Both the position numbers and the translations under genes were made by a program. Below the pieces are notes generated by a model, which was not told the DNA's origin, ran no database searches, and worked only from the letters and a program-made list of their open reading frames with translations. DNA of 54,800 nt, filler included, from Catajapyx aquilonaris (Eukaryota): assembly GCA_000934665.2 (NCBI GenBank). It is 2 parts of 2 records of this genome, joined end to end, with 100 filler letters (N's around TTAATTAATTAA, not from the genome) between each part and the next. Parts side by side here need not be neighbours in the genome. Positions count along the whole stretch, not along the records: positions 27,682 to 54,800 come from JYFJ02005106.1; 1 more part is not named here. One strand, written 5' to 3'. Every line of letters begins with the position of its first letter. Positions within the stretch are counted from its first letter, which is position 1. Positions 27,682 through 53,827 of the stretch are shown here, in pieces.

Positions 27682-28822
27682 TCAGGAGAAATGACATTAA
27701 ATTTTTTTGATGATTAAACTTAAGGTCGACCTGGAAAAACAAAGTTAGTGGTTTAGGTTGAAGAAGTTGAGAATGCCAGTAATTGACAACGACGTTGAAC
27801 TTGGCCGTATTTCAGATCTCACCACTTTTGACGGCCAAGCAGTCAGGAGAACTTGGCCTTTTTTTACAGAAAGGTTTTTGGTGGGATTTGTTCACTGTCC
27901 CCACACTGCAGCACGCAATACCTACCAGATCTAGCACCTGGAACAACAAAATTTCGAAAGGAAATTAGCCTATTATTATAAAGGCGATAATAAAGTCCAC
28001 GTGAGGCTGATGGAGACTAGAAGAGAAGGAAATGTTGTACGTTACCAAGAGCTCTTGACGCTACGTAATCCGTTTTGACCGTTTACAATATTATCTTGAT
28101 CATTTAATTCATTTTCAATTCGCAAAGTACATTACCGAAATATAAGGATATGCATAAGTTACTTTAGGTATTTTTAACAATTGCTAATTTCAAATTCTCC
28201 TTGTCACAATCCATGTCCATTACCGGCGGATAGAGTCATCTGTTTAGCCAAATCCGCATTCCTGTGATTCAATAAATACAAGTAGCATTAATGATTTGTA
28301 CAAGCCGGCAATGACATAAAATAAGTTTCATTCAGTGGAACTTACATCGAAAATTTCTCCCGATAAGCATGATAGAGGTTTATACAACTGACTGAACTGA
28401 CATCCCTCCGGAGCATAACCTGCACCTGCAATAAAGCAATGATGAGAAATATTCTCATTTACTACAAAATTATATTGAAGTGTGTGCACTGCTCAAGGGT
28501 TGTGTACAAACAAACCTGTTTCCATACAGTGGGCGAGGGTTTGGACGAAGAACTCTTTGGCCTCTTCGTATCCTTCTCCAGGCATAAAGAAATCCACCAA
28601 CTCCTTAGGTTTTATGTTTCTATCGTCATCAAGCTATGTACCACAACGGAGTAAAGCATTAGTCCCAAACACAACTGTAATGATCATTAGTTCACTCCCC
28701 CCACACTGTACTGTACACATACCAGGTCTAGCACCTCCAATATGCAGTTTTGAACATCACACTGAAATGACAAAATTAATATGGTGCGATAATATTAATT
28801 AGTCCACAATGTACTTGTTTAA

Positions 28823-30261
28823 GGTGGATATGAAGCTACCTCCCTAGTCAATTCAGTGTCTAGAACTAGAACAAAAACGTTAATTAGAGCAGTTAAATTC
28901 GGGAAAACATATGCAGTAGTGGATGCTGAGGAATAATATGCATTCCATTTTAAAATCCACCGTAAACTCGATTTGTTACAGGGCAATACCTAATTCACTT
29001 GCAACACATTGCCAACCTACTGGAATGTACACACCTGAATTTTTAGTTTGCCATAGGCAGCATATTTAGGATCAAAGGCGACGGTAGTGGGTGAGAGTTA
29101 CGAGGCTCTACAATGTCGTGTTACATCCATTACATAATACACATTATCTTCGGAAAGGGAAGGGGGATAAGTATAGGCTTTAATTTACGGTAAGTTGGTA
29201 GACCTGTTGGGAAATAGAAGTGGCAACGCAGCTCTCGCCCCAAGATGGCGCGTTCCAAGTGCACGATGCTCATCATTTTCTGGCTAGGTTGAAATATACA
29301 TTTGTGCTCTTAGCGACGCCCTTGTCGTGCTCCTGTGGAGGTTGTGGGGGCAGGAGGGTCTCCGAGGGCGGACGACACACTCAGATCAGGTGAGGTACCA
29401 CATACACAGTAAACCTGAATGTATATTCACACTGTAAATCTCTCAGGGCCGTTTTCTCGGTTTACCGGGTTTACATTTGAACCACTGTTCGAGAAAACGG
29501 CCCTCAGGCATCGAGCGATCATGAAAAGTTGTGACAGGGTCCTTAGATAACATGAGTTTGGTTTTAACATCTAATTATAATTTTTATTTTATTTATTACA
29601 GTATAGTTTTATCTAAGAACCCTGGTGTGATCGCATATTTCAAATTCGGACACTGCGCGCCATTTCGTAGGAAGACTGCCATGTTGCCACTTCCTCCCGT
29701 GCCTCAGGCTAACCCCGCGCCCTTTTTCTTTTTTCGACGATAAAATTTAAATCATTCGGTTTGATATGTTTTTTTTGCGTTCTTTGTAATTACTATATTA
29801 TTCTTCACATTTCACATAAGGTGAAGTGGGGTAAGTGCATACCCGGGGTAAGTGCATATATTGTGTCGCCATATTGGAATGAAAATGGCTGACGACACCA
29901 AAATGCGTCAGGCACTCTTTTGTGTAGCTGCACATAACATGCCCCGCGTTTTGGTGTCGTCAGCCATTTTCATTCCAATATGGCGGCACAATATATGCAC
30001 TTACCCCGTGAATGCACTTACCCCACTTCACCTTATACAGTATTACTTTCAAACTGTCAAATTGTGAAGATGCTTTAAAATAAAGTTTTAATTTAACATT
30101 GGAGCTTATGGACAGTCGGCACATTCTGAGCCATTTTGCGAGCTTATTTGCCCGGTTAGGGGTGATTTTTTTTCCACCATTGGGAGGAGGGCTTCTTACT
30201 CTATAAACCCTGTGAATTTCAAAACAATGTTCAAAATGTGAACCTTACCTTCATATCCACC
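28823..30261. mobile_element. Non-autonomous TTAA-targeting DNA transposon (Kolobok-like GG...CC ends) in intron 2 of copy A
   Basis: TIRs GGTGGATATGAAG / CTTCATATCCACC with TTAA TSD (28819-22, 30262-65). The paralogous intron of copy E shows the empty site (GGTTTAATTTGCG). Confidence 0.85.
29817..30036. mobile_element. Nested palindromic MITE
   Basis: TAAGGTGAAGTGGGGTAAGTGCAT...ATGCACTTACCCCACTTCACCTTA with ~95-bp inverted arms. A second small hairpin (GGGCCGTTTTCTCG / CGAGAAAACGGCCC) lies at ~29446-29503. Confidence 0.8.
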
Positions 30262-30749
30262 TTAATTTGCGAATATTGTGATTCAGGTAATTAAGATTCA
30301 TCGTATTTAAAAAGTCAAAATCAAACTAACATCATCCCCTTGATCGTGGCAGATCACAAGTGCTGCTTCCAAGTTCTCCTATCGCGCTTTCGGATGGTTC
30401 AGGGAATCGGCAGTGAGCAGGCTGAATATAGAGAGAAGAAATGTGACGGAGCATTTTTCAACAATCACTTGAATGAACTTACCTTTTCTTCGGCTGCTGC
30501 AAAGGCCAATAGAAGAAGGAGGGTGGCTGGGAAGAACCTCATTGTTGTTCTCTGTTGTTCCAAAATGGGAATGAATAGTACTGGACAAAATCAGTATACA
30601 GTACTTATGTAGTGTGGATTATCTTTGGTGTTGTGCGGGCACCTTTTTCTGCACGAATGTGTGAGTGATGATTAGTGTTCATATCGCTCATTCCTGGAGG
30701 ATGTTCATATCGGCGCAGGCCTGCATATGTATACTGATGTGATACTTAA

Positions 30750-31219
30750 CCTTAACTACGTAGGTGGAGCCTGAGAGGCTCCAAGCACTATTTAAACGCA
30801 TGTAACTTTTTCATTGAATTTTATTTTCCCCTGTCCTTCCGTGACTTTGTCAGAAAAACCTTCCTAAGCATGAAAAGGAAAGAAAATTTTTTTAAGTCCC
30901 TATTGTTTGGTTTAAAAAAATTCGTAACGAGGAACAGGTCCCTCCTGGACTCTATACTGGCTCTACCTATGCAGGTGAAGACTGAGCGCCTCAAGCATGA
31001 AGTAACCTTTTAAGAATTTTTCCCTGTCGGAATATGCTGACTCAGCGTGTGATTTTTACGTTTTCGGAAGCCTAATGATCTGAACTGCACTTTCTGTATG
31101 TGAATAGTCCAATATAGCAATTTAGTTGATAAGCAGAAATTGAAATATACCGTTGGAGCCTCTCAGGCTCCATACCTACGTATAGTTAAAGGTGTTTCAC
31201 CCACCTACGTAGTTAAGGG
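30750..31219. mobile_element. piggyBac-like MITE upstream of copy A
   Basis: TIRs CCTTAACTACGTAGGTGG / CCACCTACGTAGTTAAGGG, with TTAA on both sides. Confidence 0.8.
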
Positions 31220-32185: not shown

Positions 32186-32234
32186 TACATTAAACTATCG
32201 ACATTTCATTATGTACAAAAAAAAACGTCGCCAC

Positions 32235-33290
32235 AGCAACAACGTCGAGAGGTTGCTCTTAATGAACCAAAGTTGCTACCGGATCAGAGATCCGCTTATT
32301 TGACAATTGTAGACAATGTCCAGGGCCAGAAAGGTGGAGTTTTTTTCCCCTTGATGCACCAGGAGGAACTGGTAAAACATTTGTGACTAATCTGTTGTTG
32401 GCAAATGTTCGTCAGGATCAACAAATTGCACTTGCACTTGCCTCTTCTGGCATAGCATCTACTCTTTTGCCTGGTGGGAGGACTGCTCATGCAGCTTTCA
32501 AACTTCATCTAAATTTAGCTACACAGGAAAATGCACCGTGCAACATCAGCAAGGGTACCGGTGTGGCACAACTTTTGAGTCAGTGCAGGTTAATTGTTTG
32601 GGATGAGTGCACCATGTCCCACAAAGCAGCTTTTGAAGCTCTGGACTGGACACTGCAGGTGTGACCGTACCGGATTTTGCTATGTATAACTTCCCGCATT
32701 TCACTACATTCTGATACTGCATTACATTACCGCATTTTATGTACCCATCTCTTTGGTTTCGAGGCCGTTTACTTTTTTCTACATCTTGTGCAACTTGACA
32801 TTTCCCATCGGCATTTGCGGTTTTCTTGCCAACCTCTGTACACAGTCGTGTGACTTTTCCATCTGCTCGAGGCCTTTTCCCGGGAGAATATCCCGGGGAC
32901 TGGTCAGGCCACTTGTTTGGTCGACATCTCCCATCCCTGACCTTTTTCCCTTTCCCCTCACACACTCACCTTGATGAAGAATAAACTGTACGTGATTGTC
33001 TACCCACTGGCTTTTATGTTCATCCAACCGGTGACATATTAAGTGGTGTCAGAAGTGGGATAAAGACATCAGACAGTATCGTCGAGGGTGTTTCCCTATC
33101 GGTGCGTTTACACGTACCTGTTCCTTCCTTACGGAGACTATATCCGGGAATGAAAAAGATTATGGGTGGAGTTACTTTGGGTTTGGCTGGGGACTTCAGA
33201 CAGACACTGCCTGTTGTTCCACGAGGCACACGAGTCGATGAGATAAAAGCTTGCCTCAAGTCTTCTTATCTTTGGACTCGTGTTATCAAA
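32235..33290 (+). pseudogene. Helitron PIF1-like helicase fragment, frameshifted and interrupted
   Basis: Motifs LDAPGGTGKTF, ALASSGIASTLLPGGRTAH, LIVWDECTM and GDFRQTLPVVPRGTR..EIKACLKSSYLW. About 480 bp of unrelated sequence lies at ~32659-33136 between TLQ and (GNEK)IMGG. Confidence 0.9.
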
Positions 33291-33596
33291 TGTGGTGAAG
33301 ACAATCATTATTATACTATGACATGTGAATTTACCAGTGAGAACAATCGTGCCACAAAGAAAAGGTAATGTAAGAAAATTGCTCTGCTACATTACACCCA
33401 TTATAACACTATCTTTGAATACAGTGTATGTCTGCCAGATGAATCGACGAGACTGGGAGAATTTAATGGTGATGGTACATGCAGTAAATAGAATATCATT
33501 CATAGTAATGTACGAGTATTGTTCAAAAATATTGAGGCGACATTCACAGATTCAGTTACCATGGCATGTTACTGTGTTAATATGTCCGAACCTTAC

Positions 33597-34506: not shown

Positions 34507-36526
34507 TTATCTACGAGAACTATTTCGACAAAAGTGAGCCATTTCCGCCACCAGCACCACCAGAGCGCCCAACAGGCCCAGAAGCCAAATGTTGAAGATC
34601 CCTTCCAACTTGGCCATTGTCATCACTTCATCTCGCACGTATGTCTTCGCAGCGATCTCTTCGGCCTCTAGGATCCTCCTCAGGTTGCGGAGGAAGTTCA
34701 TGTACTTCTCGTGCTCGATGAAGGTGTAGAATATATTGCTCTCTATAAACAGTACTATGACTTTACTGAACATGTGAAACAGTTGGGTTTGGCCTTTAGA
34801 AGTACCGGCGAAGGCATATCCAGGGAATCTGTCGTCTTGGATGTACTGGAGGTTCATGGTCCCATCACTGCTCGTGTGAAGATACGTTTCTCGCTCCAAG
34901 AGAATGTCCAGTCCGGCGCAGACAACGTTCTCCTTTTGAGTTTTACGCAGACAATCTTGAATAGTGCCCTTCATCTGCATGCGATTACATATCCCCAGCG
35001 TAACCGGATCTTGAGCCGTTTTACCGAAGTGACTTATGAGGAGATAGTTTATGACATCAGCTTCCAAATCCCAGTTTGAATTAAGAAATTCTACCGCAGT
35101 GGTTGGAACAAATTCTTCTGGGGGCCAGGTCAGGAAGGACACCAGTTTGGCTCTGTAACCTGTTATGATCACGGTGACAAACATGAGCATACATGCAGTG
35201 AAGGTGAGTGAGAAATGAGTTCCTGTTAAATTCATGTTCTGCTCCATCAGTGTACGCAGAATGAGCCCGACTGATTGTGACATTGACAGAGTACTGGTCG
35301 AGGCGCGTCTCCGTTTGGAAATGTACCACGCACTGATAAACAATGCGACTAAGCTGGATGCAATCAAGGCCCAGACCAACAGTGGATAAGGCATGAAAAT
35401 CACCTTCCAAGTCACGATGCGTCGAGGGATTCTTGTCAGACCGGTTCCAAAGGCGAACCAGCAAGCTTGGGGAATGTTGAGTACAGAATATGATTCCTCC
35501 GAAGGGAGAATGATTTGCAGGGCATCCGTCTTGTTCTGCACCAATTTACCCACCAACCCTCCCCAGGATCCGTTTGGGTAACGAGTATCCAGCTCCACTT
35601 TAAATTCCTCCGACGTGTTCTCAATTATTGCGTATAGAGCAGTTTCCACAATTATCAAAAATCTCTCATACATACCGACAACACTCACCCTCGGCGTTCT
35701 TCTTCTTTCTTGCATCTGGTACGTCCATGTCCACGTAAAACCGAGTTCTGATAACCCCTCCATTCATCCTCCTGACATCGTAGTCTCGAAAGAAGAGATT
35801 CACCATGTCTCCACCACCGTCATCAGATGGATCGAACACTCCGAGATGCAGTATTTGTGGGTACCCTCCTTGTGCGCAGTAGAAGCAGACCGTGTCCACC
35901 TTGATCCGCCCATCGGGGCCATCCCCTGTGACCATGACCTTTAGCCTGAGGGAGGTGGCGGGTGGGGAGTGGGCCATGATCCTGTGCACCTCTCCTACCT
36001 CCTGAGCATGATGAGGATGAGTGTGACCATCAGTCCTGAAGTGAATGATGAATCGATCTTCCCCTGGAGCCACCTTGACCAAGGAGGCTGCGTGCATGAC
36101 GAGTGGTGGCAGAGCGTGGACATGGGTGGGCATGAACAGGTGCAAAGTGCAGGAGAGTCCGGGCCAGAGACGGGACAGGAGCTGAGGCGGGACAGTGGTG
36201 AAGTCGTGCATCTGGTCCTCTCTTACCAGCCAGGGGTAGTCCTCAAGCGAGTGTTTTTGTCCGTCCGTGGTCATCCGGAGGGGGAAGGTGGGCAGGTACC
36301 TGTCCGAGTGTCCGATCAGGAGCTTCTGAACCGGGACGCTGAAGGAGACTGAATCGGTGGCGGTGACCAGCGTGCATCCAGCTAGATCCGCCCTCCGAAG
36401 GACGTGTCCCACCAGTCGGGACACAGACTCGTCCTCCTCCGAATCCTTGTCCAGGCTAATGTTATTGCCCAACACTATTCTCACAATCACCACCAGCCAC
36501 ACCAGGACACGTCCAAACCACTCCAT
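34507..36526 (-). CDS. Divergent ionotropic receptor (IR, iGluR-related chemoreceptor), intronless, with one apparent 1-bp frameshift at ~35680
   Basis: Signal peptide MEWFGRVLVWLVVIVRIVLG; S1 motif YPNGSWGGLVGKL; IFMPYPLLVWAL (M1); GYRAKLVSFLTWP (M3); S2; MAKLEGIFNIWLLGLLGALVVLVAE (M4). ORFs 35666-36577 and 34507-35763 join if one T is removed from GAGTGTTGTCGGTATG, giving GECVGMYE. Confidence 0.85.
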
Positions 36527-36589
36527 GGATGTTGTCCCACTACAATTTACAAGATAGTCTGTGCCACGCATGCACATTGCGTAGCATTT

Positions 36590-36779
36590 CTGAGAAGCAC
36601 TTAAGCAGCTGGACGCCCCTTACCAGTCTGGACACTGCCCACCACTCTCCTTCCGCATTCTTTTCTTCCATCAGACGAGACAAGTTCTTCCCAACACCCC
36701 ACGATGATGACGAGGTGTGGCCACCAAACATGGCCACGGCCACGGAGCAAAGGACCAGCACTTCTTGCAACCCGGACAT
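36590..36779 (-). pseudogene. Possible N-terminal remnant of a third IR paralog
   Basis: MSGLQEVLVLCSVAVAMFGG...EEKNAEGEWWAVSRLVRGV resembles the signal peptide plus EEDESVSRLVGHV start of the adjacent IR. Confidence 0.35.
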
Positions 36780-37506
36780 GCTACATACAAACACTGACGT
36801 GGCCCAATATTCCTGTACCACATCGCCACTCCGAAATGGTTTAATATTGAATTGACCATAATTACTCCGTACGCAGTAGCCTTCTGCCTTCCAAGGCATA
36901 GCAGTCACAGAGTCCCGTACATCAAAGCGCGGAACACTGATTGCATCAGTCAAAGGACACCAGAGAACATTGCAGCAGTTGACCATAACATATAAATAAA
37001 CCACTTGAACTCTATAGGCTTATGCCTGACGGCTGCGGATTATTCGTATAGGGAATTTTTGAATCACATCGAAATCAAAGGACTTCATTCCACTGTCAGT
37101 GTGATGATGTGTTATGTAACTCTCATGCATGCAAGTCACTGCAATGTAAACTATGCTACTCTGGGTACCCTCTACCCTCTGCATTAATATTCTCACATTA
37201 GCCATATACTGTATAATTGGACCAGAAACTACTTATTCAAGGTTGACAATCACGAAAATAATTCGCGATTTGTTGCGATACGACCCCAAAATAAATTATT
37301 GTTGAAGTTTTGATTTTCGTCAAATTTTGCACTTTTCTTTTCCTTTTTTCTCCTTCAATGATACAAGACCATGTAAGTATATGCATGCTCTAGAAACAGT
37401 GACAGTGATACATAAATTGAAATGTGTCCCCCTCGAATTTGATTGCCATAAAATTGCACCTTTTATGCTTTTCAGACATGTTAAGACAAGCAGCAATTAC
37501 CATTAA

Positions 37507-38311: not shown

Positions 38312-38329
38312 AGTTCTTTTTCGACAGTA

Positions 38330-40691: not shown

Positions 40692-42572
40692 ATGACATGA
40701 ACTCTCTATGCCAAATAGACTTGATTGACATGCAGTCAGAACCAGATGGGGAATATCGGTTCATATTGAATTACCAAGATCATTTAACTAAATTTACTGT
40801 TCTTCGTCCATTGAAAACCAAAACTGCTGAGGAAGTGGCTTATCAAGTACTGGACATCTTTTGTATTTTTGGTGCTCCACTTATACTTCAGAGCGACAAC
40901 AGACGAGAGTTTGCAAATAAAGTAACTTAATAAAGAATTTGGCTGAAATGTGGCCTGGATTGAAGCTTGTTCATGGAAAGCCTTGGCATTCCCAAAGCCA
41001 GGGATCGGTCGAGAGATCAAACCAAGATGTTAGGGACATGCTGGTAGCGTGGATGGCTGACAACAGCATCCAGAAGGGGTCAGAAGGACTTCGTTTTATT
41101 CAGAGCAAGAAGAACCGAGCTTTGCACGCAGGAATTAAGACCAGCCCGTATGAAGCTATGTTTGGAACTGCACAATGGATCGGATTTGCAGATTCTCCTT
41201 TCCACAAGGACGTCTACACTTCAATAGAAACTGAAGAGGAATTAGAAGAGCTCTTTACATCACAAATTATCAGATACAACCAGATGAAGAAGAAGCTGAC
41301 AACATTCAGAGCAGAAGAGATGAAGCTGAAGCCAACACTGAGTGTCAAAGTGAAGCAACTGAGAAAGTGTCTGAAAAACCAGTGTACTGTGCGGTTTGTG
41401 AGAAATAGTCTTCTGGTGCTCACAAGTGTTTTGTATGTGATCAATATGTTCACATTATCTGTGGAAAATGCACAGAAGAAAATGAGGGGTTTGGACAGAA
41501 AATCACTTGCAACCTGGAAAGAGAGTATAAAAAGTAAGCGTCAAGGTGCAAGATTCAATCAGAAAAAACAAGCTGAGCAAATGATTTCTCTGTCCAACTC
41601 AAGGCTTTCCCCTGTCGACATAGGGAGAAACGTCGTGGTTAGGGTACCTGAAGTCGATCGAGGACGTTTGGCTCCTAGGAATGTGTTAGCGGTTGTTGTC
41701 GACGTTAATGAATCTAGGCTCTACCAATTGGGCACGAAAGAAGGCAGTTTAGAGAGGCTGTATGCTCGCAATGAGTTCACACCTGCTGATTCCAATTTTA
41801 TAGATCTGAACGAAGTTCCTTCCACCAGTTCTGTATCTCTTCGATCGGCTTCAGCTCTAAGTTCAGGTAGTAAGCAGGGATTCATAAGTTGCAGTTGCAA
41901 AAAGTACTGCACTGATAAGACATGTAAATGTCGATCAAGCAATATTAAGTGCAATTCTAAGTGTCATCCGAAAAGTGCCTGCAAAAACAAATAGACTAAT
42001 AATTGAAGGATAGGAGTTCTTGGAAATGATGTACTAGTAATAATGGTATCAAATATTTGGAGGTAACACCGTTCTTGGAAATGATGTACTAGTAATAATG
42101 GTAATAAATATTTGGAGGTAATAGTTCCTGGAAAATAAACAGCAGCATCAAATGTTAAGTATTTCAACCATTTGCCAAACAACAATAGGGTGATTTTTTT
42201 TCCACGAGCTTCTACATGGCACAGTGGGAAATAGGAAACTGCCACAACGAGTTATGGACGTCTTCTAAACCAGCCATCCCGACACGAAATTGGCGTCCTG
42301 ACGTGTAAGTTTCGCCCAGGAAAGCTTTCTGGCCTTAAAAAGAGCATTTCGGGCTCTGGCCGTTTCATTAAACCGTCCATTCTGCAGAATGGATGGTTTG
42401 AGAAAGGAGCATTCTGCTGAATGGAGGGTTTGAGAAAGGAGGATTCTGCAGAATGGACGGTTTAAAACTGTTTAAAACATCCATTCTGCAGAATGGATGG
42501 TTTGGCACAGATCATTCTGCAGAATGGACGGTTTTTTCGCGCAATGGCCGTTTTCGGGGTTTGAGCCTAACA
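40692..42572 (+). mobile_element. Decayed 5'-truncated Ginger2-type (KRBA2/SCAND3-like) DDE integrase transposon
   Basis: CQIDLIDMQ..DGEYRFILNYQDHLTKF, FGAPLILQSDN, HSQSQGSVER and C-terminal CSCKKYC..CKC..CNSKCH. In-frame stop at 40928-30 and frameshifts near 41270-41510. Subterminal repeats are followed by a candidate ...TAACA end at 42572. Confidence 0.85.
42370..42532. repeat. ~29-bp repeats with palindromic core CCATTCTGCAGAATGG
   Basis: Five or more copies; probably subterminal repeats of the Ginger element. Confidence 0.8.
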
Positions 42573-42821: not shown

Positions 42822-43658
42822 ATGATCTTCATAGCCACCCTTCTCCTTCTCTTGGCCTTTGCAGCAGCCGAAAAGGTACGTTCATTCAAGTGATTGTTGA
42901 AATATGTTCCATCATATTTCTTCTCATTATTCAGCCTTCTCACTGCCGACACCCTGATGAACTAGACGAGAGTGTGGGAGGAGAACTGGAAGCAGCGAAA
43001 AGGACCTGCCAGGATCAAGAGGATGAGGTTTGATTTTGACTGCATCACAATTTCTACAAACTGAACAAGAATATGTTGGACTAATATGATACCATGCTCA
43101 TCTTATCTTTTCAGTGTGAACGTTCAAGATGCCAATTAGAGCTGCTACACCTGGTATGTGTGTGCAGTGGGGGGAGGGGCGGGGTGTAGTTAACAAATGA
43201 TCATTACAGTTGTATTAGTTGTCAGTAATGCTATTTACTCTGTTGCGGAACATAGCTTGATGACAATGGAAACATAAAACCACAGGCGATGGCTGACTTA
43301 TTTCTGCCCGAAGAAGGATACGAAGAGACCAAGGAGTTCTTCGTCGAAACTTTTAACCACTGCGTAGAAACAGGTCTGTAGGCTACTCGACCATTGAACA
43401 ATGCACACAGGAATATGTTATAAAGGAGAAAATTACTCGTCATTGCTTTACTTCAGATGAAGGTGGTGATGTACCGGGGTTACCTGAGGGATGTAACTTC
43501 TTGAAACCTCTAGCATGCACAATAGGAAATTTTTTCCGTGTAAGACTTGCTGTAAAATTCTTGTGATATTATTTCCAACTGAATGGAACTAATTTAATTG
43601 CCTGCTCATATACATTTATTAATGCTCCTCGCATTTGTTGCAGGAATGCGGATTGTAA
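42822..43658 (+). CDS. 8-Cys secreted OBP-like family, copy B (intact, 133 aa)
   Basis: Exons 42822-42875, 42935-43027, 43115-43153, 43256-43373, 43457-43539 and 43644-43658. Product: MIFIATLLLLLAFAAAEKPSHCRHPDELDESVGGELEAAKRTCQDQEDECERSRCQLELLHLLDDNGNIKPQAMADLFLPEEGYEETKEFFVETFNHCVETDEGGDVPGLPEGCNFLKPLACTIGNFFRECGL*. Confidence 0.9.
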
Positions 43659-44084
43659 TAGACAGATGACTCTATACATATCGATAATGGACATGGATTG
43701 CGACAAAGAGAGTTTGAAATTTTCAATTATTGTCAAATATAGGCCTACATAAAGTTGGCCTACTGATGTATATCCTTAATTTCGCTCTTGTATTTTGCGA
43801 AGTGAAAATAAATTAAATGATTATGAAAATTGCCTTGGGACGCCTATGTATAGGCCTATACGAGCTCGCATATAGAACCATCAGTATTGTAAATGGGTCG
43901 GGCCAGCTTCATCTTCATGGACATCATGAGTATGAATTTTGAGCCCAAAGTGTTGGTGTTGACGTGAAGTTGGCACCGCCATTCTTAGCATGTGGATATC
44001 TCGGGAACTAAGCGAGGTGATTACGTTGGAAATCTCAAAAAAAGCTCATAAATATGGGCACGTTTGCAATTTTTGAGCTGAAAG

Positions 44085-44353
44085 TGGCGGTGCTATCTTC
44101 ACGGAGCTCCAAGAGGGAGGTCCGGCGTTCAAATCCCGTCCCCGTCACCTTCCGATTTTCACCCGACATGTCCGGGCAGACTTTCGCACTAGGCTACCTT
44201 CTCTGCCCAGGCCCAAGCGAAACTGTATGGCATTTAAGAGGGTCTGAAATGAATAAGCGCCCTCCCTCGGGAACCTCCCCATCCTTCCTATAAGACGGCC
44301 CCTGGCCCTATCACGAGGTATTTAAAACAAACAAACAAACAAACAAACAAACA
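44085..44353 (+). mobile_element. tRNA-derived SINE with (AAAC)n tail
   Basis: B-box GTTCAAATCCCG near 44127, body, then a TTTAAAAC(AAAC)n tail. Confidence 0.7.
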
Positions 44354-44508
44354 ATACTAATCAAAAGACAAGAACATCCATCCAGAGTGCTGTCACTTTA
44401 GGCATTTATTGTCATTCAATCATATATACAAATTAAGTGGACGTACTCTTCACAATAGTCAAGTTCAAATTGTCAGTGTCGTTATCCATCATCGTGCCAG
44501 ATTGGCAA

Positions 44509-45404
44509 TTACAGCAGCCTGCATTCCTGCAAAGCAATAAATATGCAGCGTATTAACCGTCCATATGCTAAAATATACCTAGATCAACATAATTTCGCAA
44601 AATATCGTTACCATCTGAAATGTAGACAATGCGCAGCGTATGGGCCTCTCAAAATCACATGCATCCGAGGAATTACACTGTAGTCCAACTGTAGTAATAA
44701 TGAGCAATTATTTCTGAACCCAGAACTACATTCCATATTGCAATGTACGTATAGTAAAAAACTAACGATGTTCCATGCAGTCTATTAATGTTCCGACGAT
44801 GAAATCCTTGGTCTCTTCGTATCCTCTGGGCGGAAGTAGGTCTACAAAAGCTTCTGGTAGCAAGTTTCCATCATCGTCAATCTATACGTACCCCCACCAC
44901 CACAATTAAAACATCACTCTCAAACGTAACAATAGTGATGACACCCAACTGGGCATATACCCTACATACCACATCTAGATCCTCGAACAAGCATCTTGAA
45001 ACATCACACTGGAAAGACAGACGGAAGAACGGAACATGGTGCCATTGTTAGTCCAATAATTATGACAACTTGTTGTGTTATTGTCATTCAAGTGCAGGCC
45101 TGTGCAGGCTGCACTTGAGTCAAATGCAAAATGGTCTCTATATGTTTTTGAGCGATATAGTACTGTACATAGACTACCCCCTATACCTCATTCCCTTGAT
45201 CTCGGCAGACCAAAAATGCTACTTGAATCTGTCCTTGCGTGCTTTCAGGGATGTCATCAGGGTGTCGGAAATAATCGGGCTGAATAAACTATCTAGAGAA
45301 GATAAACGTGACAAAACCTTCCTCAACAATGACTTGAATCGACTCACCTCGTCTTGGGCTGCTGCAAAGGCCAAGAGAAGGACAAGGGTGGCTTCAACAC
45401 ACAC
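44509..45404 (-). pseudogene. 8-Cys secreted OBP-like family, copy C (start codon and core promoter deleted, Cys1 to Phe)
   Basis: Exons ~45404-45348 (ATLVLLLAFAAAQDE, no in-frame ATG), 45279-45187, 45008-44970 (CDVSRCLFEDLDV), 44881-44767, 44688-44612 and 44526-44509 (ECRLL*). Confidence 0.75.
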
Positions 45405-45686
45405 ACATGTGAGTGGCGATTAATGCTCAGGTGAAAAAAGCGATCATAATTTTTCAACTTCTTAGTAATGAATACTAAAGATTCTGATGGGGACTATAGG
45501 AAGTGTCATATATAGACTAACAACCCCCGTAAATAATTACCGGAATCTTAATGACTGATTTAATTTATTTCCATTTCGCCAAAATACAAGAATGAAATTA
45601 AGGACATACAAATTTGACAGTTGAAAATATCAAACTCTCCACGTCGCAATCCATCATCATTACCGATGTACAGAGTCATCTGGAAA

Positions 45687-46554
45687 TTATAACGGTCCGC
45701 ATTCCTGTAACATTGAAAATATAAGGAGCGTTAATTAGTATAACTGTATAAGGACTATAAGCCATCAAGTTAAATAAGTTTTATTCAGTTGAAAATAAAA
45801 ATTTCACAAGTGAGTGGCCTACATACCTTCCTGATTATTCTGGATGTGCATCCAAGAGGTTTAGCGAAATCGCATCCCTCCATAAAACCACCTTCACCTG
45901 GAGTATTCAAAAATGAGTAATTGTCACTCATTTATAACACACTAGTGCGTACGTATAGTGCATGTGAAATAGTACAAACAAACCTGTTTCTAAGCAGTGG
46001 AGAAGCGTTTCGGCGAGGAACTCCTTGGCTTCATCGTATCCTTCTTCAGGCAGAAATAAGTCCGCCATCTCCTGTGCTTTCAAGTTTCCATCATCATCAA
46101 CCTATACACACCGCACCGCAAAATAATTACTCTCAAATTAAACAATCGGCATTTGTTCACTACCCCACACTACACCATACATACCAGACCTAGCATCTCG
46201 AACACGCATCTTGTAACTTCACACTGAAAAGGCAGGATGAATATACGAGTCCAACATGCACTTGTTCAGTTCGCAAAAATATATTGTGATGCAGGCAATG
46301 AAGAGTCAGTATATTTTTATAACTCAAAATCAAACTAACCTGATTCTCTTGATACTGGCAGGCCATATACGCTGCTTGCATCTCTCCTCGCACACTATCG
46401 GGGACATCATCAAGGTGTTGGCAGCGAGCAGGCTGAATGACGAGAAGAAAAACTAAACATTGGTTTCCAATGACACTTTGAATCGACTCACCAGCACATC
46501 TCTGGCTGCTGCAAAGGTCGACAAGAGGAGGACAAGGGTGGCTGCGAAGATCAT
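45687..46554 (-). CDS. 8-Cys secreted OBP-like family, copy D (intact, 133 aa)
   Basis: Exons 46554-46492, 46432-46340, 46223-46185, 46101-45984, 45897-45827 and 45704-45687. Product: MIFAATLVLLLSTFAAARDVLPARCQHLDDVPDSVRGEMQAAYMACQYQENQCEVTRCVFEMLGLVDDDGNLKAQEMADLFLPEEGYDEAKEFLAETLLHCLETGEGGFMEGCDFAKPLGCTSRIIRKECGPL*. Confidence 0.9.
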
Positions 46555-47095
46555 TGTTGCTCTTTGTTGTTCCAAAATGGGAATGTCGATATTGGGCTAT
46601 GGAGTAGAGTTTTTATGTAGTGTGGATTATCTTTGGGGATGTGGAGCAGCTTTTCCTACATGATTGTATGAGTGACGATTAGTGTTCATGTCGCTGCTTC
46701 CTGGAGTGTGATCATATTATAATTATCTGGTAAAAACAACATGCTCATCATCATAATTTGAAGATTTATTTTACAGCACCGATTAGTTTGACTAGAGCGG
46801 ATATAGTGCATATCCCAGGGCGATAATTGTTGTTAAAGCAACAGACAAGATGTCATTAAATTTTGCAGTTTTATTGTGTCAAATTGGTTCAAACATTAGG
46901 AATTCTTTACATTGAAGATTGTTGGTGCGAAGACACCATATTGTTGATATATTCTAGAAAAATCTTGTTGTAGAGTGTGTTGTTGCATTTAGGACATGTT
47001 GACAACATTTCATCAGTTGCAGTTATACAATGACAGAAACTCATCAGGTGTTTAGAATACACAAACATGAAACAGCTTGTGTCATATTCTCTACT

Positions 47096-48266
47096 TCAGG
47101 AATTCGAATATTGAACATTTTTGCCATCTTTGCGTGAGCACATGTTTGCACCCAACCAGTATCCAAGCTCAAAGGTGAACACCAGTGTTGCGAGAGATTA
47201 TCCGGTGACCCAGAAAAGAAACACGATGAGAAGGTTTCCTGATTTGACGACGTCTTTCACGTCATCGTTCTTCACGATGCCTTCTTCGCGCATTATTCTG
47301 AGATTGGTCCAGAAATCCTGGAAGCTGTCTTCTATCTTCCATTCCTCGTGGATGCCACTCTCCCACAACATCGCTTGAAACTTGAGGACTCTTGGTATCT
47401 CAACATTACCTTTGTTGTAGACAAGATTTGCATACATGTCGTACGCATGTTCAGGAGCCACTTTCAAGGTTGGATCTCCATTTTCATCTCTCATTTTGCC
47501 TTCGTCTCGGTGAATAAAGTAGTCGTACACCAGACAGGCTTTTCCTGGAGTGTCCACCACCAGTGCCATACAGTCCATGGAACTGGAAATAATATTGATG
47601 ATTGGTTGATGAGACTCTCGTAGGTTGTGTTGGCGTTGACTTGTTTGACGACCACCAAGTTTAAGTAGGGGACCAGGGTCTCGTACCGGCTCCTTGGACC
47701 AGATCACCATGTCTTGGGCAGTTCCTCCTTGGACAACACGGTCAAGAAGGCCAGCAGTTTGGTGACGTATCCGCAGGAGACGATAATGGCCATGAGCCTC
47801 ATCGTCCCTTCGAACTCACGAGAGGCTGTGAGTGGGGAAAGGTCGTGAGGCTGACCGATGGGCATCTTGAATAGAGACGCCGTCGCTGATCCCAGGCTGA
47901 TCTGCACCCCTGATCGACAGATGATCATCCACATGGCCACTCCTGAGATGACCCAGGTCACCAGGATCAAAGCCCACAGTGGAGGATCAAAAGGGTGGAT
48001 CAGCGTGCTCCAAGGGATGACCGCCCTTGGCAAGGCAGTGACGAAGGTCATGTAGAACTGGATCACACATGGAGAAAATAGCGCGTACCGGGGGACCTGG
48101 TCAGACATAATGTACACAATTCCAGCATGAACTTCTCCGGAGAGGATGAATCCAACTGTCCCCGTCCAGGTTCCGTTTGAACGCCTCTTGTCTTGTTCAT
48201 TCAAAGTATTTCATACGATCATACCCCGAGCAACGCCGGGTATCCTGCTAGTAAAGCTTATATAAC

Positions 48267-48339
<73 letters not shown>

Positions 48340-48914
48340 CATTACCTGCTTATGATCTTGTACCGGATCCCTCTGGCTGGACGGTCTAGTAGAAGATCCT
48401 TGTTCTGATCCGTCGTGTTTCGAAAGTGCAACACGAAGTGGTCGTACAGACTCCGGACCTGGACAGTCCCGACCAGTTGAAGCAGCTGGTCAGGCAAGGT
48501 AGATGGACTGTTGGACACCAAGAGGTGCAGGACACACTTGTCTCCGAGGTTCACCTGGGACATCATGTCTGGAGGCATGGTGGTGAAGGAATGCATCTGC
48601 TCAGGACCAGTGATTCCGAGGTACTCGCTCCATGGTTTTGGTTGAAACGCGTTGGCTTTTCCTGCACCGAGTGTGACCGTCGTGTGGTACCCTCCGTTCC
48701 TTTCTGCCACCAGTTCGGACAGAGGACGACTCGTGCTGTCCTCTCCTTCGCCCAAGGACAGCACCAACGAGCAGTCCTGAAACTGATGGTTCTCCAGCAG
48801 ATCCAGGACCATCCTGGACAACAGCTGGTCCTCCTCATCATCCTCACGCAGATTCACCCTGCCTCCCTGACAGTCCTGCAGGACAAGAAGCATCAGCAGA
48901 CTGTAAGCCAGCAT
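47096..48914 (-). pseudogene. Divergent ionotropic receptor pseudogene, paralog of the IR at 34507-36526
   Basis: Shared N-terminal motif QMHSFTTMPP..CVLHL; NGTWTGTVG, LIHPFDPPLWAL and GYVTKLLAFLT. Lesions: roughly 100 codons replaced by (TC)n plus a TE-like fragment (48205-48345), stop at 47704-06, frameshift near 47590, premature TAA in M4 (47198-200). The original stop is at 47096-98. Confidence 0.85.
48270..48335. repeat. (GA)n microsatellite
   Basis: About 33 GA units. Confidence 0.99.
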
Positions 48915-49736
48915 GGTTGCCTCGAACAGCGTGTACCTCTTGTTTGGTCGCAATACCTAAATATTACATCACCTCACGTGATCCTAGGAGAGTAAGTAAG
49001 CGATTCCAGATACGACTCAGCCTGCTGGTACGAACAATCAAGGTAGAGTGCTTCACATAAAGGTCTCATAAAATAAATGGTATTTCATCACCTAAGTGCC
49101 TCACTGTTATTCCCTGTGGTATGAGCCATGTCGAAGTACCCCTGAAGAATAAATCATGCAGTAGAGTAGGCCATATCAGAAATTGATTTTCATTACCGTA
49201 CTGAAACCCAGTCAATATTAATGTGTAACTAGAAATTTAGTAGTGGGGCCAGCAATATCAGTTGCAAGACACTACGTGTCACCTGTAACGCAATAGATAT
49301 CCAGAGTATTAATTATTGATCCAGAGCAGGTGATAAATAATTTTTAAAATTTCACACAAATACTATACAAAACTATTGATTCTTATAGGATGAAAGCAAA
49401 AAACATATTTCAAATTCAAAAGTCGCCATAGTTATTTCATACAGGTTATCACGTAAAATATTATATTATAATAATGCATAAAATGTAAAACACAAGCTAT
49501 AATTCAGTGTAATAACTCTTTCACGTTGGTCGGATGCAAACTATATAGAATGGAAGGAAATGCATAGTCTTATCAACCCATATTCAAATATCTTAGTCCT
49601 TGAATTTATTTTCACTTCGCAAAATACAACAGCGAAATTAAGGATATACGGTACTTATCGAATTTGACATATTGAAAATATTTCAAACTCTCTTTGTCCC
49701 AATCCATGTCCATTACCGATGTGTAGAGTCCTTTGT

Positions 49737-50604
49737 CTAGCTGCATTCCTGCAACAAAATGCGAGGAGCATTAATAATATACAGTATATCAGCAAATTAT
49801 TTCCATTCAGTTGGAAATAATATCGCCAGAATCATTTTTTCAGCAAGTCTTACTCTTTCAAATTTTTCTGTTGCGCATGTTAGAGGTTTCGCCCAGTCAC
49901 ATCCCTCAGCTACTGGTGCATGACCTTCACCTGAAGTAAAGCAATGATGAGTAATTTTCTCCTTCATAACATATTTATGTGTGCACTGCTCAAGAGTTGA
50001 GTACAATCAAACCTGTTTCTAGGCAGTGGGTGAACGCTTCTACGAAAAACTCTTTGGTCTCTTCGTATCCTTCTCCGGGCAGATAGAAATCCATCATCTC
50101 CTTTGGTTTTATCTTTCCATCGTCATCAAACTATGTACCACAACGGAGTAAAGCATTATAGTCACCAATGCAACTGTAATGATCATTAGTTCACTGCCCC
50201 CACACTGTACTGTACATACCAGGTCTTGCGAATCCAATATGCAGTGTTGAACAGCACACTGAAAAGACAAATGAACAAAATGAATATGGTGCGATAATAT
50301 TAATTAGTCCAAATTGTACTGGTTTAATTTGCGAATATTGTGATGCAGGTAGTTAAGATTCATCATATTTAAAAAGTCAAAATCAAACTAACCATATCCC
50401 CTTGATCGTGGCACATCATTTTCGCTGCTTCCAGTTCTTCTCTCAAGCTTTCGGATGGTTTATCAGGGTATCGGCAGTGAGCAGGCTCAATATAGAGAAG
50501 AACTGTGAGGGAACATTTCTCAACAATCACTTGAATGAACTTACCTTTTCTTCTGCTGCTGCAAAGGCCAAGAGAAGAAGGAGGGTGGCTGCGAAGAACC
50601 TCAT
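49737..50604 (-). CDS. 8-Cys secreted OBP-like family, copy E (intact, 132 aa)
   Basis: Exons 50604-50545, 50485-50393, 50258-50220, 50130-50013, 49930-49854 and 49748-49737. Product: MRFFAATLLLLLAFAAAEEKPAHCRYPDKPSESLREELEAAKMMCHDQGDMCAVQHCILDSQDLFDDDGKIKPKEMMDFYLPGEGYEETKEFFVEAFTHCLETGEGHAPVAEGCDWAKPLTCATEKFERECS*. The intron 1 acceptor is a weaker GAG. Confidence 0.88.
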
Positions 50605-52909
50605 TGTTGCTCTCTGTTGTTCCAAAATGGGAATGAAGAGTATTACATAATATCAATACTTATGTAGCGTGGATTATCTCTGGGGTTGTGTGGGCAGCTT
50701 TTCCTACATACATGTTTAAGTGACGATTAGTGTTCATGCCGCTAATTAGCTGGAGGATGTTCATATCGAGCCAGGCCTGATGTATACTGATGTGATAATA
50801 ATAAAGCTATACACATTAGGCCATATGACTGTAGTGCTAATTATATCTGAGCTTATAGCAACAGCTTTTGCAACTTACGTGTGATTGGTAATATTAATGT
50901 CGAAATATCTGCTTCCTGAGGTGTGTTCATATCGGATTAGGCAATATACTGATGGGGGCACATACACGGAGAAAATTTAATATTACATAACATAATATTG
51001 CCATATACAGCCCGGGGTTCCCCCCTTCATCTCGTGCAGAGTTGGACCATCTCTGGCTTCGTCTCGGGTGGAAATTTCCGCTGGACTAATCCACCCGGGC
51101 AGCATCAAGCAACGTCATCGCACTTGCACTTTGCACATCCCCTCCTATAGTTACCCTGATCTTGGACCAAGAAATAATAGAAAAATTATATGGTTCCAAC
51201 AGATGGTGGTATTCCACCCCGCCACCCTAAGAGGGCCTACGGCCCTAGCGCGGGGTACAAAAACAAATATATGGCCATATAGTGCGCCAATAAGGAAGAA
51301 ATGGATAGGATGAGAAATAATTTTTTATCATTTTTCTACAAAAAATTGTAATTATTCAATATTCGCACCTGTACATTTGTTTCGCACCTTATATTACGGA
51401 AATGATGACAAGTCAAGGATGAAGCTGTGTTCTACTGATTGGTTCGCATTGTCCAATCATTACAGCATCATCGAGTTCCGTACTTTCCCACAACTACGGT
51501 CCAGTTTGAGCACATTTTCTTTCGTATGAAGAAAACCTCATGTTAATAAACCTTTATGTTTTGGCTTTAGATTGAGCTATGATTACTCTAACTCCTTAGT
51601 AGAGAAAATCTTTAAAATATTAACAACTTTTAAAAATATTAATGAAAAAGTAGCGGTAGCTTCTAGTTCGGCGCAAAGTTGCCCAACTATATGGTCCATG
51701 ATTTATTTATCATGATATTACGAAGTTAAACAGTCATATATTACATTTCTTTAAAGATAATCTATTTTTAAATCCAAATAATTAATAATCGTTTCCTTTC
51801 CATTAAACTTTTTGATAAGAAAAAAGAATTAAAAACAGAGTAACGCTTCTGCGACTCTTTCTGGCCTACCGGTATCTGGAAGGAAGTAAGTTGTTGTTGT
51901 CTAACGAAGTTTTTTATGTTACTAAGGTTTACTTTTGCCTCGAGAAATGAAAGTTTCTCTGAACTGGGATTAAACAGGGTTTGAACCGGGTTTACATTTG
52001 AAACACTTTTCAAGAAATCGGGCACTTGTTAATTATATGTCATCAACTAAACGTATTTAACCCAAGAAGGTTGATGTTAAAGTTTTTCGTTGACTAAACC
52101 GCCAGAAAAAGATAAGCACAAGAAATCATGCAGTATATTATAATACGTTTATTTCGTATATCATTGACAACGTACATAGGAAAGGGTTCCTGTTTAACAA
52201 GACAGAATAATCACCATATAGTAGTAATAATTTCAAGCTACTTACAACCTTGGAGCGTCGACGTGAGTCGTCCTGGAGAGCAGAGAGCCCAAGAGAGGCG
52301 GAGGACGGCTTATATAAATTATATAGGGGCGGTTTGCACTTCACAATATGGAAATCCACACGTGTTACATAACTGACCTTACTTACGCAAAAGTGAAGAT
52401 GGACGGTACATCCGATGTACCTGCAAAACTTAGTTATATTTATTTAATTTCATACCCCTTGCTTGGGCCAAAGGCCCGTTTTGGGGGACACACACACACC
52501 AACCCATACAGTTATAATCAGATTATATAGATCGTATTATATAAAGAAAAATAAACAGTTAACAGGTTTTCCTCTCAGGAGTCACAAAACTGCAAGGTTG
52601 AGGAAAACAAGTATACCTCCTGGACCAAGTGTCAACATTGAGCGACAGGAGGGTCATCCAGATGGAGAACCAAACCCAGCGTCAAAATCTGGTGTTGTAT
52701 GGTGTTCCATATGAGCAAGGCCGCAAGGGGAACTATGGGACGACGCCGAAAGGAAAATCCGCAAGGTGATCGACAGCTACGGGCTCCACCCCTTCCCTAT
52801 AAGCAAGTACAATTCCAACGAGTGCATCGCCTGGGGTCTCACTGGCCCATTATTGCTTTCTTCCTGCGTTTAACCCAACCTCCCCCCTCCCTACGCCACT
52901 GCTAGGTTT

Positions 52910-52982
52910 GGTACTCTCTGGTACTCCCGGTACTCCTCGGTACTCCCAGGTACTCCTCGGTACTCCTTGAATTTGGTACTCC
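52910..52982. repeat. ~10-bp GGTACTC minisatellite
   Basis: GGTACTC(C/T)nn repeated about 6 times. Confidence 0.8.
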
Positions 52983-53274
52983 GGTGTACACTTTTCAGTC
53001 GAGTGATTACCCCCTTGCCTGTAGACTTGAATATATAACCATCATGATAGTACTTCCCTACTTTCTCATTTAAAAAATCTTCTCACCCTTTATTGAAAGG
53101 TCCTTGTACTTGGCATATTCTGTACTTATATGTCCGAATAATTTATTTTTTCATTTTGCAAAATACAAGAGCAAAATTAAGAATATAAATACTTTACGTA
53201 TCTGACAACTTAAAATAATTTCGAGCTCTCTTTGTCGCAATCCATGTCCATTACCGATGTGTAGAGTCATCTGG

Positions 53275-53827
53275 CTAGACCCATCCGCATTCCTGTAATG
53301 CAACAAAAATGCGACGAGCATTAATGGATATCAGCAGAGATGAAGTACCAGAAAATAAGTTTGAATGAGTTGAAAATAATATCACAAGTAGCTATTTTTT
53401 CAGCAAGTCCTTACACTGGCAAGTTTTTTTTCTGCGCATTCTAGAGCTTTATAGACCTCACATTCCTCCGAAGATTCACCTTCACCTGCAATAAAGCAAT
53501 GGTGAGTACTTGTCAGTTTTGTAACATATTGCTATGTGCACTGTTCAAGAGTTAAATAGAAACAAACCTGTTTCTAAGCAGTGGGTGAATGCATCTAAGA
53601 AATACTCTTTGGATTCTTCGTATCCTTCGGGCAGAAAGAAGTCAATCAACTCCTTTGGTTTAACGTTTTCATCGTCATCAATCTATGAACAGGAATGCAG
53701 TAAAGCATTACTCACAAACAACATGGTCAACCTTGTGGTCAGCTGCTCTAATGAACATTAATTCCCTGCTCCCACGTAGTATACATACCAGGTCTAGCAC
53801 ATGGTACATGCATCTGTCAACATCACA
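53275..53827 (-). CDS. 8-Cys secreted OBP-like family, copy F (exons 3-6 only in this window)
   Basis: Exons 53827-53789 (CDVDRCMYHVLDL), 53682-53568 (IDDDENVKPKELIDFFLPEGYEESKEYFLDAFTHCLET), 53485-53415 (GEGESSEECEVYKALECAEKKLAS) and 53292-53275 (ECGWV*). Intron 2 is interrupted by TEs from 53914. Confidence 0.8.

Follow-up and report, generated by a model that had tools for sequence, protein, structure and literature searches.

A cluster of six-exon genes for predicted secreted eight-cysteine proteins, candidate divergent odorant-binding-type carriers

Six copies of one small gene lie in the window (the whole stretch of DNA that was analysed, 54,800 nucleotides), and searches of its 2,649 six-frame peptides with exon HMMs found no more than these six. 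The exon 4 HMM gave six matches (E ≤ 2.7e-23; next best E 2.7), as did those of exon 3 (E ≤ 6e-6; next 0.15) and exon 5 (E ≤ 6.7e-10; next 0.78), while the exon 2 HMM gave four intact matches, two split matches in copy A and none in copy F. A six-exon layout is common to all copies, with GT-AG borders in 28/28 complete introns and phases of 0,0,0,1,0; exons 2 to 4 have the same lengths in copies B, D, and E (93, 39, and 118 nt), and intron lengths are variable. The description of this locus in the first-pass annotation as a six-gene family with one exon structure is thus borne out, and so is its span of 28244..53827: position 28244 belongs to the stop codon of A, and exon 3 of F starts at 53827. 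Its proteins of about 132 aa come from three of the six copies, since B, D, and E are intact, whereas A, C, and F are damaged or partial (Table 1).

Table 1. Gene copies and conserved promoter flank, with positions counted along the window
Feature	Span	Strand	Exons	State
Copy A	28244..30542	-	30542-30483, 30421-30331, 28761-28723, 28633-28516, 28425-28346, 28261-28244	Probable pseudogene
Copy B	42822..43658	+	42822-42875, 42935-43027, 43115-43153, 43256-43373, 43457-43539, 43644-43658	Intact, 133 aa, CDS 402 nt; all splice sites GT-AG
Copy C	44509..45393	-	Exon 1 remnant ..45348; exons 2 to 6: 45279-45187, 45008-44970, 44881-44767, 44688-44612, 44526-44509	5'-truncated at 45393
Copy D	45687..46554	-	46554-46492, 46432-46340, 46223-46185, 46101-45984, 45897-45827, 45704-45687	Intact, 133 aa
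Copy E	49737..50604	-	50604-50545, 50485-50393, 50258-50220, 50130-50013, 49930-49854, 49748-49737	Intact, 132 aa
Copy F	53275..53827	-	Exons 3 to 6: 53827-53789, 53682-53568, 53485-53415, 53292-53275	Partial
5' flank (promoter) of copy E	50605..50797	-		Conserved; equivalent blocks upstream of A, B, and D

The damaged copies differ in what they have lost. Exon 2 of copy A measures 91 nt, which shifts the reading frame, and its intron 2 extends over 1569 nt; approximately 1.44 kb (roughly 28823-30261) was inserted there, because both ends of this intron align with intron 2 of copy E, which is uninterrupted. Copy C is the oldest copy. It has no in-frame ATG, carries Phe in place of the first cysteine and has an additional cysteine in exon 5, while its exons 2 to 6 are open and every splice site is retained; the 5' truncation therefore makes it a probable pseudogene, or else a gene whose first exon was not seen. 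No exon 1 or 2 of copy F was found up to the window end at 54800, and the DNA upstream of approximately 53900 is a high-copy repeat (word depth of 2,300 to 7,800 in the DNA run X1). A single X1 contig covers the region of copy D (45358-46698) without gaps. The span of the cluster also contains unrelated DNA that includes PIF1-helicase and integrase fragments, as well as an ionotropic-receptor-like ORF for which no relatives were found at E ≤ 1e-5.

Copies B and E are transcribed and spliced, because contigs of the public run X5 join their exons exactly at five predicted introns, and the DNA run X1 contains no such joints. Introns 1, 2, and 3 of copy B are skipped exactly in one X5 contig and introns 4 and 5 of copy E in others, which confirms these five of the junctions predicted from the genomic sequence. 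The contig assigned to copy B may stem from an allele or from a paralogue that is nearly identical, because it differs at 7 of 93 bases from exon 2 in the window. The comparison with X5 and X1 included copies B to F; apart from repeats, X5 does not cover copies C, D, and F, which says nothing on their expression. Every copy is preceded by a TATA/Inr-like promoter of its own and followed by one poly(A) signal 99 to 149 nt past the stop codon, with two in copy F. Copy B has a TATA-like element at -61, an Inr-like element at -33, and AATAAA 149 nt past the stop; the corresponding elements of copy E lie at -60, at -32, and at position 49610. The upstream flank of copy A (30605-30744) agrees with those of copies E (50660-50797), D (46613-46717), and B (42693-42629) at 83%, 84%, and 86%, respectively.

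The products of copies B, D, and E are predicted to be secreted by way of a signal peptide encoded in exon 1. By simple heuristics, their first 16 residues average 2.1 to 2.4 on the Kyte-Doolittle scale, with an Ala-rich run at the end. The mature proteins would comprise 115 to 117 aa (13 kDa) and be acidic (pI 4.3 to 4.5). The cysteine spacing of the family is 20-6-4-42-(11-15)-7-8; copy D has 20,6,4,42,11,7,8, and copy E has precisely the pattern quoted for it earlier (20,6,4,42,13,7,8); the two peptides quoted with that pattern are present in copies D and E. In the alignment of B, D, and E, 8/8 cysteine columns are invariant versus 34% at other columns (chance about 2e-4), and across all six copies 6 of the 7 cysteine-containing columns are all-cysteine (chance about 1.5e-5). 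The two largest exons are predicted to be helical, as AlphaFold2 models of the isolated fragments have one helix for exon 2 (residues 12 to 29; pLDDT 79) and two for exon 4 (residues 9 to 16 and 23 to 38; pLDDT 81), with no strands in either.

Assignment of odorant-binding proteins (OBPs) rests mainly on the cysteine pattern, and identity among them can be under 10%, as described in part of PMC4145409. The classic signature is C1-X25-30-C2-X3-C3-X36-42-C4-X8-14-C5-X8-C6 (PMC5623005). We tried any six of the eight cysteines in B, D, and E against it, and the best choices reproduce three of the five spacings. These choices give 27, 4, and 42, followed either by 11 to 13 and 7 or by 19 to 23 and 8, and C2-C3 is always 4. 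With cysteines 1, 3, 4, and 5 read as C1 to C4, the values of 27 and 42 fall in the classic ranges (PMC5623005), together with either C4-C5 (11 to 13, in D and E) or C5-C6 (8). The C2-C3 gap that the first-pass annotation called very short disappears in this reading; it arose because the cysteines had been numbered in order, and with cysteines 1, 3, and 4 as C1 to C3 the C1-C2 distance is 27, within 25 to 30. The misfit that it saw in C-X4-C survives as the C2-C3 distance of 4; the two classic spacings that vary least both fail, and the best mapping is 3/5. C1-C2 fits, and OBPs with eight cysteines (Plus-C) are already described in part of PMC6303780.

Likeness to the classic insect OBPs (PF01395) has two sides. 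Both groups comprise acidic, helical proteins of approximately 13 kDa with a signal peptide and disulfides (presumed here), encoded in clusters with pseudogenes, and the C1-C2 and C3-C4 distances agree. A further likeness is an acidic turn with a Gly, which many classic OBPs have a short way past C3. The present proteins differ in having eight cysteines rather than six, a C2-C3 distance of 4 instead of the near-invariant 3, C4-C5 and C5-C6 distances that cannot both fit, and no exon-level Pfam or PDB sequence match. Plus-C OBPs are variants described for cockroach, fly, and bugs in parts of PMC6303780 and PMC5623005; their motif adds the cysteines C4a and C6a, places Pro immediately behind C6, and has a C4-C4a distance of 19 to 29 (PMC5623005). 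The present proteins likewise have eight cysteines, and one possible reading has C5-X8-C6 preceded by an additional cysteine that lies between C4 and C5. However, copies B, D, and E have no Pro after either candidate C6, the next cysteine after C4 follows at 11 to 15 rather than 19 to 29, and the extra N-terminal cysteine lies 6 residues before C2; C6a is absent because the proteins end 1 to 3 residues past the last cysteine. Chelicerates and myriapods have OBP-like proteins (Vizueta et al. 2017) that are characterized in parts of PMC5850775, PMC5381604, and PMC5952958 as small, secreted, and distant from insect OBPs, with a conserved cysteine pattern. By description, the present family resembles them as small, predicted secreted proteins with conserved cysteines. 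Chemosensory proteins (CSP/OS-D), whose cysteines are spaced X6, X18, X2, do not match the family: the spacing 20,6,4,42,11-15,7,8 contains X6 but no X18-X2 after it. They have four cysteines and two small loops, as described in part of PMC4145409.

Homology searches used single exons of 25 to 43 residues, a length too short for remote homology. None of nine single-exon peptides (31 to 39 aa, six of them exon 4) matched any Pfam family at E ≤ 10, and sequence and profile searches of the PDB with exons 2, 4, and 5 returned only chance-level rows (E ≥ 0.12), with no OBP and no EF-hand among them. Exon 4 queries of two protein databases (5.8 and 1.84 billion proteins) likewise retrieved no relative: searches of longer proteins with exon 4 of copy E and, at E ≤ 10, with the exon 4 alignment of five copies gave nothing, and the exon 4 profile had two matches among protein representatives, both of them 6 to 8 short repeated stretches, which were rejected as relatives. 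Foldseek against its PDB library with the 39-aa exon 4 model gave 13 rows (best E 4.2; none at E ≤ 0.001). This cysteine pattern was not described in the literature covered on springtail and dipluran OBP repertoires and on eight-cysteine OBPs, which included few subscription journals. Kinship with PBP_GOBP (PF01395) is accordingly unproven. The soluble OBP-like carrier first suggested for this locus agrees with the small, acidic, helical, and secreted-looking products, but the exons match nothing in Pfam, the PDB sequences, or the protein databases.

Protein change in the family has been fast. The dN/dS ratio is 0.6 to 1.0 among the intact copies B, D, and E (0.94 to 1.0 for B-D and B-E) and 0.93 to 1.39 within the younger group of A, B, E, and F; against copy C, dS is 0.9 to 1.3 and dN/dS falls to 0.38 to 0.47. 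Between B and E, the mature-protein exons are 24% different (bootstrap, 20 to 29%) versus 15% (11 to 20%) for introns 1, 3, 4, and 5 and 15 to 19% for the flanks. Faster divergence of exons than of introns and flanks is typically seen in toxins and in immune or reproductive proteins. We rejected such an excess as a general feature of the family, because in MAFFT alignments the introns of B-D and D-E have diverged more than the exons.

Could these copies be decaying repeats, or fragments carried by transposons, without function and with open frames that are chance survivals? Damage in 3 of the 6 copies, several pairs with dN/dS near 1, and transposon fragments between the copies would fit such an origin. 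It is nevertheless largely refuted and has a very small probability, given that transcripts of B and E are spliced, that a separate promoter and poly(A) signal are present at each copy, that dN/dS against the oldest copy is well below these values, and that the eight cysteines, splice sites, and exon lengths are all retained in B, D, and E at 23 to 28% non-synonymous difference. The retained frame, splice sites, and cysteines, the promoter and poly(A) signal of each copy, and the five spliced introns likewise uphold the earlier call of genes rather than transposable elements: the repeats are real genes of a fast-evolving family. Those genes might instead encode helical, disulfide-stapled secreted proteins of a lineage-specific family that is not homologous to OBPs and has a different role outside the cell (in defence, in reproduction, or as a component of a secretion), with their fast evolution reflecting an arms race or sexual selection. 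The dN/dS ratios of the younger copies and the exon excess of the expressed pair B-E point in this direction, although the more diverged introns of B-D and D-E do not; the incomplete agreement with the classic cysteine signature and the lack of any relative in the sequence searches are also consistent with it, but those searches used exons too short for remote homology, and size, charge, helicity, signal peptide, and 3/5 spacings all fit OBPs. We regard this alternative as rather unlikely.

A further alternative, a secreted and disulfide-stabilised EF-hand-like calcium-binding protein, takes the acidic turn where exons 3 and 4 meet (Asp-Asp-Asp-Gly) as a calcium loop between two helices. In an ESM Atlas feature search with exon 4 of copy E, the ten best named matches were EF-hand clusters (0.91 to 0.93), and a search with exon 4 of copy B from which EF-hand families were left out still retrieved the EF-hand-related SAPC2_N, caleosin, and AIF-1 (0.85 to 0.89). 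However, the Atlas matches share 96 to 139 of 256 features, when 9 of 10 true family matches share 170 or more. The exon 4 fragment is modelled as loop-helix-loop-helix, akin to the helix-acidic loop-helix of EF-hand proteins, in which loop positions 3 and 5 are Asp, position 8 is hydrophobic, and position 12 is often Glu; here positions 3, 5, and 8 fit in 6/6 copies and position 12 is Glu in 4/6. Other features depart from such a loop, with Leu or Val at position 1 and Lys or Leu at position 9 in 6/6 copies (non-ligand residues), Gly at position 6 lost in 2/6, no second loop to form the usual EF-hand pair, and a cysteine-rich, predicted secreted protein around it. A PROSITE-type EF-loop pattern matches 0/9 sequences, Pfam at E ≤ 10 with its EF-hand models assigns no family to any of the six exon 4 peptides, and no EF-hand is among the 13 Foldseek matches of the fragment. 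An EF-hand origin is thus improbable.

We favor, with a probability of roughly 55%, a birth-and-death cluster of one small six-exon gene, three copies intact and three damaged, whose product is most likely a very divergent secreted carrier of the OBP type. Each intact copy would be its own transcription unit, encoding a signal peptide in exon 1 and then an acidic all-alpha protein of approximately 115 residues and 13 kDa, in which the eight invariant cysteines presumably form four disulfides, one more than in classic OBPs. The disulfide-stapled helices would enclose a pocket for small hydrophobic ligands, and gene duplication with fast change of non-cysteine residues may have diversified binding in this pocket. 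Two further observations run against an OBP-type carrier: dN/dS of 0.94 to 1.0 (B-D and B-E) is also expected under relaxed constraint, and the language-model search with exon 4 led to EF-hand clusters and not to PF01395, in an atlas that is unlikely to hold many insect OBPs. More tentatively, and at less than even odds, the genes may belong to an eight-cysteine, very divergent branch of the OBP superfamily that has grown to dozens of loci in a springtail-like hexapod from an early branch and whose mature protein is under diversifying selection.

In the parts of PMC4145409 and PMC5850775 that treat their distribution, OBPs are reported only from Hexapoda, and PMC4145409 in part presents them as a hexapod invention of unknown origin and reports them from Collembola, with only 7 sequences in two springtail species. 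The window has no conserved gene by which its host could be placed, and the crustacean host that the first-pass annotation considered is not supported. A large and fast-evolving set of eight-cysteine OBP-like genes in a genome akin to those of springtails would inform the origin of the OBP family and its ancestral cysteine pattern, and if the divergent OBP branch is real, the fourth disulfide and the C-X4-C helix staple could approach the ancestral state of the six-cysteine insect OBPs. If the proteins are not OBPs, they would represent a novel class of helical, secreted proteins with four disulfides. In either reading, the locus itself is of an ordinary type, a clustered gene family for secreted proteins.

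The six copies (A to F) of a 6-exon gene are a real, partly expressed, and fast-evolving gene cluster for proteins with eight cysteines that are predicted to be secreted and helical. Direct-repeat families connect four stretches of the window (28.2-30.7, 44.8-46.7, 49.7-50.8, and 53.2-53.9 kb). The exons of the best copy, which runs along the minus strand, were placed by eye and then spliced by coordinate; the spliced product matched the window in six places, including one on the plus strand. Exon models for all copies were fixed after a three-frame reading of every place, and exon HMMs derived from them were run on the full set of 2,649 peptides from six-frame translation of the window. These returned one match per exon per copy and nothing beyond, the exceptions being exon 2 of copy A, which is split over two frames, and exon 2 of copy F, for which no match was found. 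The exon 4 HMM gave 6 matches at E <= 2.7e-23, with the next best at E 2.7. The coordinates and quoted motifs of the first-pass annotation were correct, and its description of six genes giving ~132-aa proteins holds for three copies (B, D, and E) but fails for A, C, and F.

All 28 complete introns across the six copies are GT..AG, with phases 0,0,0,1,0. Copy A is frameshifted in exon 2 (91 nt versus 93 in the others), and ~1.44 kb (window 28823-30261) is read as an insertion in its intron 2 because both ends of this intron align with the uninterrupted one of E. The sole match of this insertion elsewhere in the window is 44 nt at 51978-52021. Homology of copy C ends at 45393, Phe replaces its first Cys, and no in-frame ATG is present; its exons 2 to 6 are still open, and every splice site is kept. 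Only exons 3 to 6 of copy F lie within the window, which ends at 54800, and a high-copy repeat stands beside this copy, upstream of ~53900.

Intact gene copies and other features located in the window
Feature	Coordinates	Strand	Details
Copy B	42822-43658	plus	intact, 133 residues
Copy D	46554-45687	minus	intact, 133 residues
Copy E	50604-49737	minus	intact, 132 residues
Open frame, 418 aa	34510-35763	minus	Pfam Lig_chan, E 2.6e-5, 24.5 bits, below curated cut-off 30.8
Two more long frames just upstream of the Lig_chan frame	35669-36619, 36543-37019	minus	
Two adjacent PIF1-like helicase frames	32266-33365	plus	E 1.4e-31 and 1.4e-11
Integrase core (rve) fragment, then 357-aa open frame without family	40508-41991	plus	E 3.6e-5, below cut-off
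Bins of high word depth in DNA run X1	43912-45527, 47952-48355, 50780-51183, 52800-53203, 53608-54800		1,200 to 17,000 versus about 20-50 elsewhere
21-nt tandem repeat	10033-10200		six overlapping 63-nt register copies; upstream half of window, outside cluster
~89-nt tandem repeat	5764-6141		4 copies; upstream half of window, outside cluster

Transcription was assessed with X5, a public run of the same organism that is stored as contigs and whose data type is not on record. Its contigs skip exactly introns 1, 2, and 3 of copy B (42876-42934, 43028-43114, and 43154-43255) and introns 4 and 5 of copy E (50012-49931 and 49853-49749). None of these exon joints occurs in X1, and that run covers all 30 bins. 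X5 has joints that are absent from X1 and covers only 12 of the 30 bins; it therefore behaves like RNA-derived data. Of the ten introns in B and E, five are thus spliced as modelled, the remaining five having no bridging contig, and the cluster is partly expressed. In exon 2, the B contig differs from the window at 7 of 93 bases and may therefore derive from an allele or from a nearly identical paralogue.

Conservation among copies extends upstream to about -200 in the 5′ flank. Copies A, B, and E share an Inr-like TCAKTY (the Inr consensus) at -32 or -33 and, at -60 to -67, a TATA-like motif, which is the only one of the two found in D. Five copies carry one AATAAA or ATTAAA 99-149 nt past the stop, and F carries two. 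The position of the stop codon within exon 6 shifts slightly between copies. The 150 nt past the stop (e.g., 49587-49736, minus; 43659-43808, plus) differ by 15-23% between copies, versus 24-31% for the mature-protein exons, and a shared regulatory element may be present in the 3′ UTR.

Values of dS separate a young group of A, B, E, and F (0.25-0.34) from the older D (0.38-0.74) and the oldest copy, C (0.9-1.3). For full coding sequences, dN/dS is 0.94 (B-D), 1.0 (B-E), and 0.62 (D-E), and comparisons with copy C give 0.38-0.47. The mature-protein exons of B and E differ by 24% (bootstrap, 20-29%), their introns 1, 3, 4, and 5 by 15% (11-20%), and their flanks by 15-19%. A general excess of exon divergence, obtained from a gap-tolerant pairwise aligner, was rejected, and the claim is limited to the expressed pair B-E because intron divergence exceeds exon divergence in B-D and D-E. 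All eight Cys columns are invariant in B, D, and E versus 34% of other columns (chance, about 2e-4), and in the six-copy alignment of exons 3 to 6, 6 of the 7 Cys-containing columns are all-Cys (chance, about 1.5e-5). A fixed scaffold whose surface or pocket residues change fast is compatible with unvarying cysteines and an overall dN/dS close to 1; relaxed constraint could also lie behind such a ratio.

By heuristics, the protein has a hydrophobic N-terminus with an Ala-rich run at its end and a mature part of 115-117 residues (13 kDa, pI 4.3-4.5). The cysteine spacing in B/D/E is 20,6,4,42,(15/11/13),7,8. AlphaFold2 predicted helices at 9-16 and 23-38 for the exon 4 alignment (39 aa, pLDDT 80.7) and a single helix at 12-29 for exon 2 (31 aa, pLDDT 78.9), with no strands in either fragment. 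These all-helical models, covering 70 of the ~115 residues, would argue against beta-rich carriers such as NPC2 and lipocalins.

The first-pass annotation had proposed an odorant-binding protein (OBP)-like family. All profile, folding, and database searches used single-exon peptides. With these, Pfam gave no family at E <= 10 for any of nine peptides, sequence-profile searches of the PDB gave chance rows only, a word-indexed set of 5.8 billion proteins held no relative, and a HMMER scan of 1.84 billion proteins gave two repeat-like matches and no relative. The classic OBP cysteine signature, as given in PMC5623005, was tried on all possible sets of six cysteines. The best set reproduces three of the five spacings: C1-C2 (27) and C3-C4 (42) fit, C2-C3 (4) fits under no set, and either C4-C5 or C5-C6 fits, never both. 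The additional cysteine pair would then join Cys 2 to either Cys 8 or Cys 6. The Plus-C motif is also lacking, with neither a Pro after C6 nor the extra cysteine C6a. Both classic and Plus-C OBPs were accordingly set aside, and the family is not filed under either because of this partial signature, the missing Plus-C motif, and single-exon searches without a relative. The likeness to OBPs extends to size, charge, helicity, secretion signal, partial spacing, and clustered birth-and-death, and this resemblance is the best lead for the family. According to PMC4145409, the cysteine pattern is the main basis for assigning OBPs, at identities below 10%, and those reported from Collembola comprise only 7 sequences in two species; OBPs are taken as hexapod-specific in PMC5850775. 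Within the part of the literature searched, neither the A-F cysteine pattern nor an extensive set of OBPs in springtails was described. The most likely reading, with a probability of roughly 0.55, is that A-F represent a divergent OBP-type carrier family; failing that, which is the less likely case, they probably form a lineage-specific family with another function.

An EF-hand-type exon 4 is a minor rival to the OBP-type reading. A feature search of the ESM Atlas with exon 4 returned EF-hand clusters (0.91-0.93), and EF-hand-related families were still returned when EF-hand families were excluded. However, the shared features (96-139 of 256) are below the tool's level for true family matches, the Pfam scan of exon-4 peptides gave no family, and a PROSITE-type EF loop pattern matched 0 of 9 sequences. 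Loop positions 1 and 9 carry non-ligand residues in all six copies, a second EF loop is absent, and a Foldseek search with the exon-4 fragment found nothing.

Other features are interspersed with the gene copies. A search with the Lig_chan (ligand-gated ion channel) frame gave no relative at E <= 1e-5. Taken as one unit with the two frames upstream (34510-37019, inside the A-F cluster), it resembles a strongly diverged chemoreceptor gene of the ionotropic-receptor type, or else a pseudogene interrupted by changes of frame. The helicase frames, lying between copies A and B, are probably a Helitron-type transposon that has been broken up, and the integrase region, immediately upstream of copy B, is likely what is left of a retroelement or DNA transposon. 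No conserved gene from which the host lineage could be placed is present in the window. The word depth in X1 points to high-copy repeats interspersed between the gene copies.
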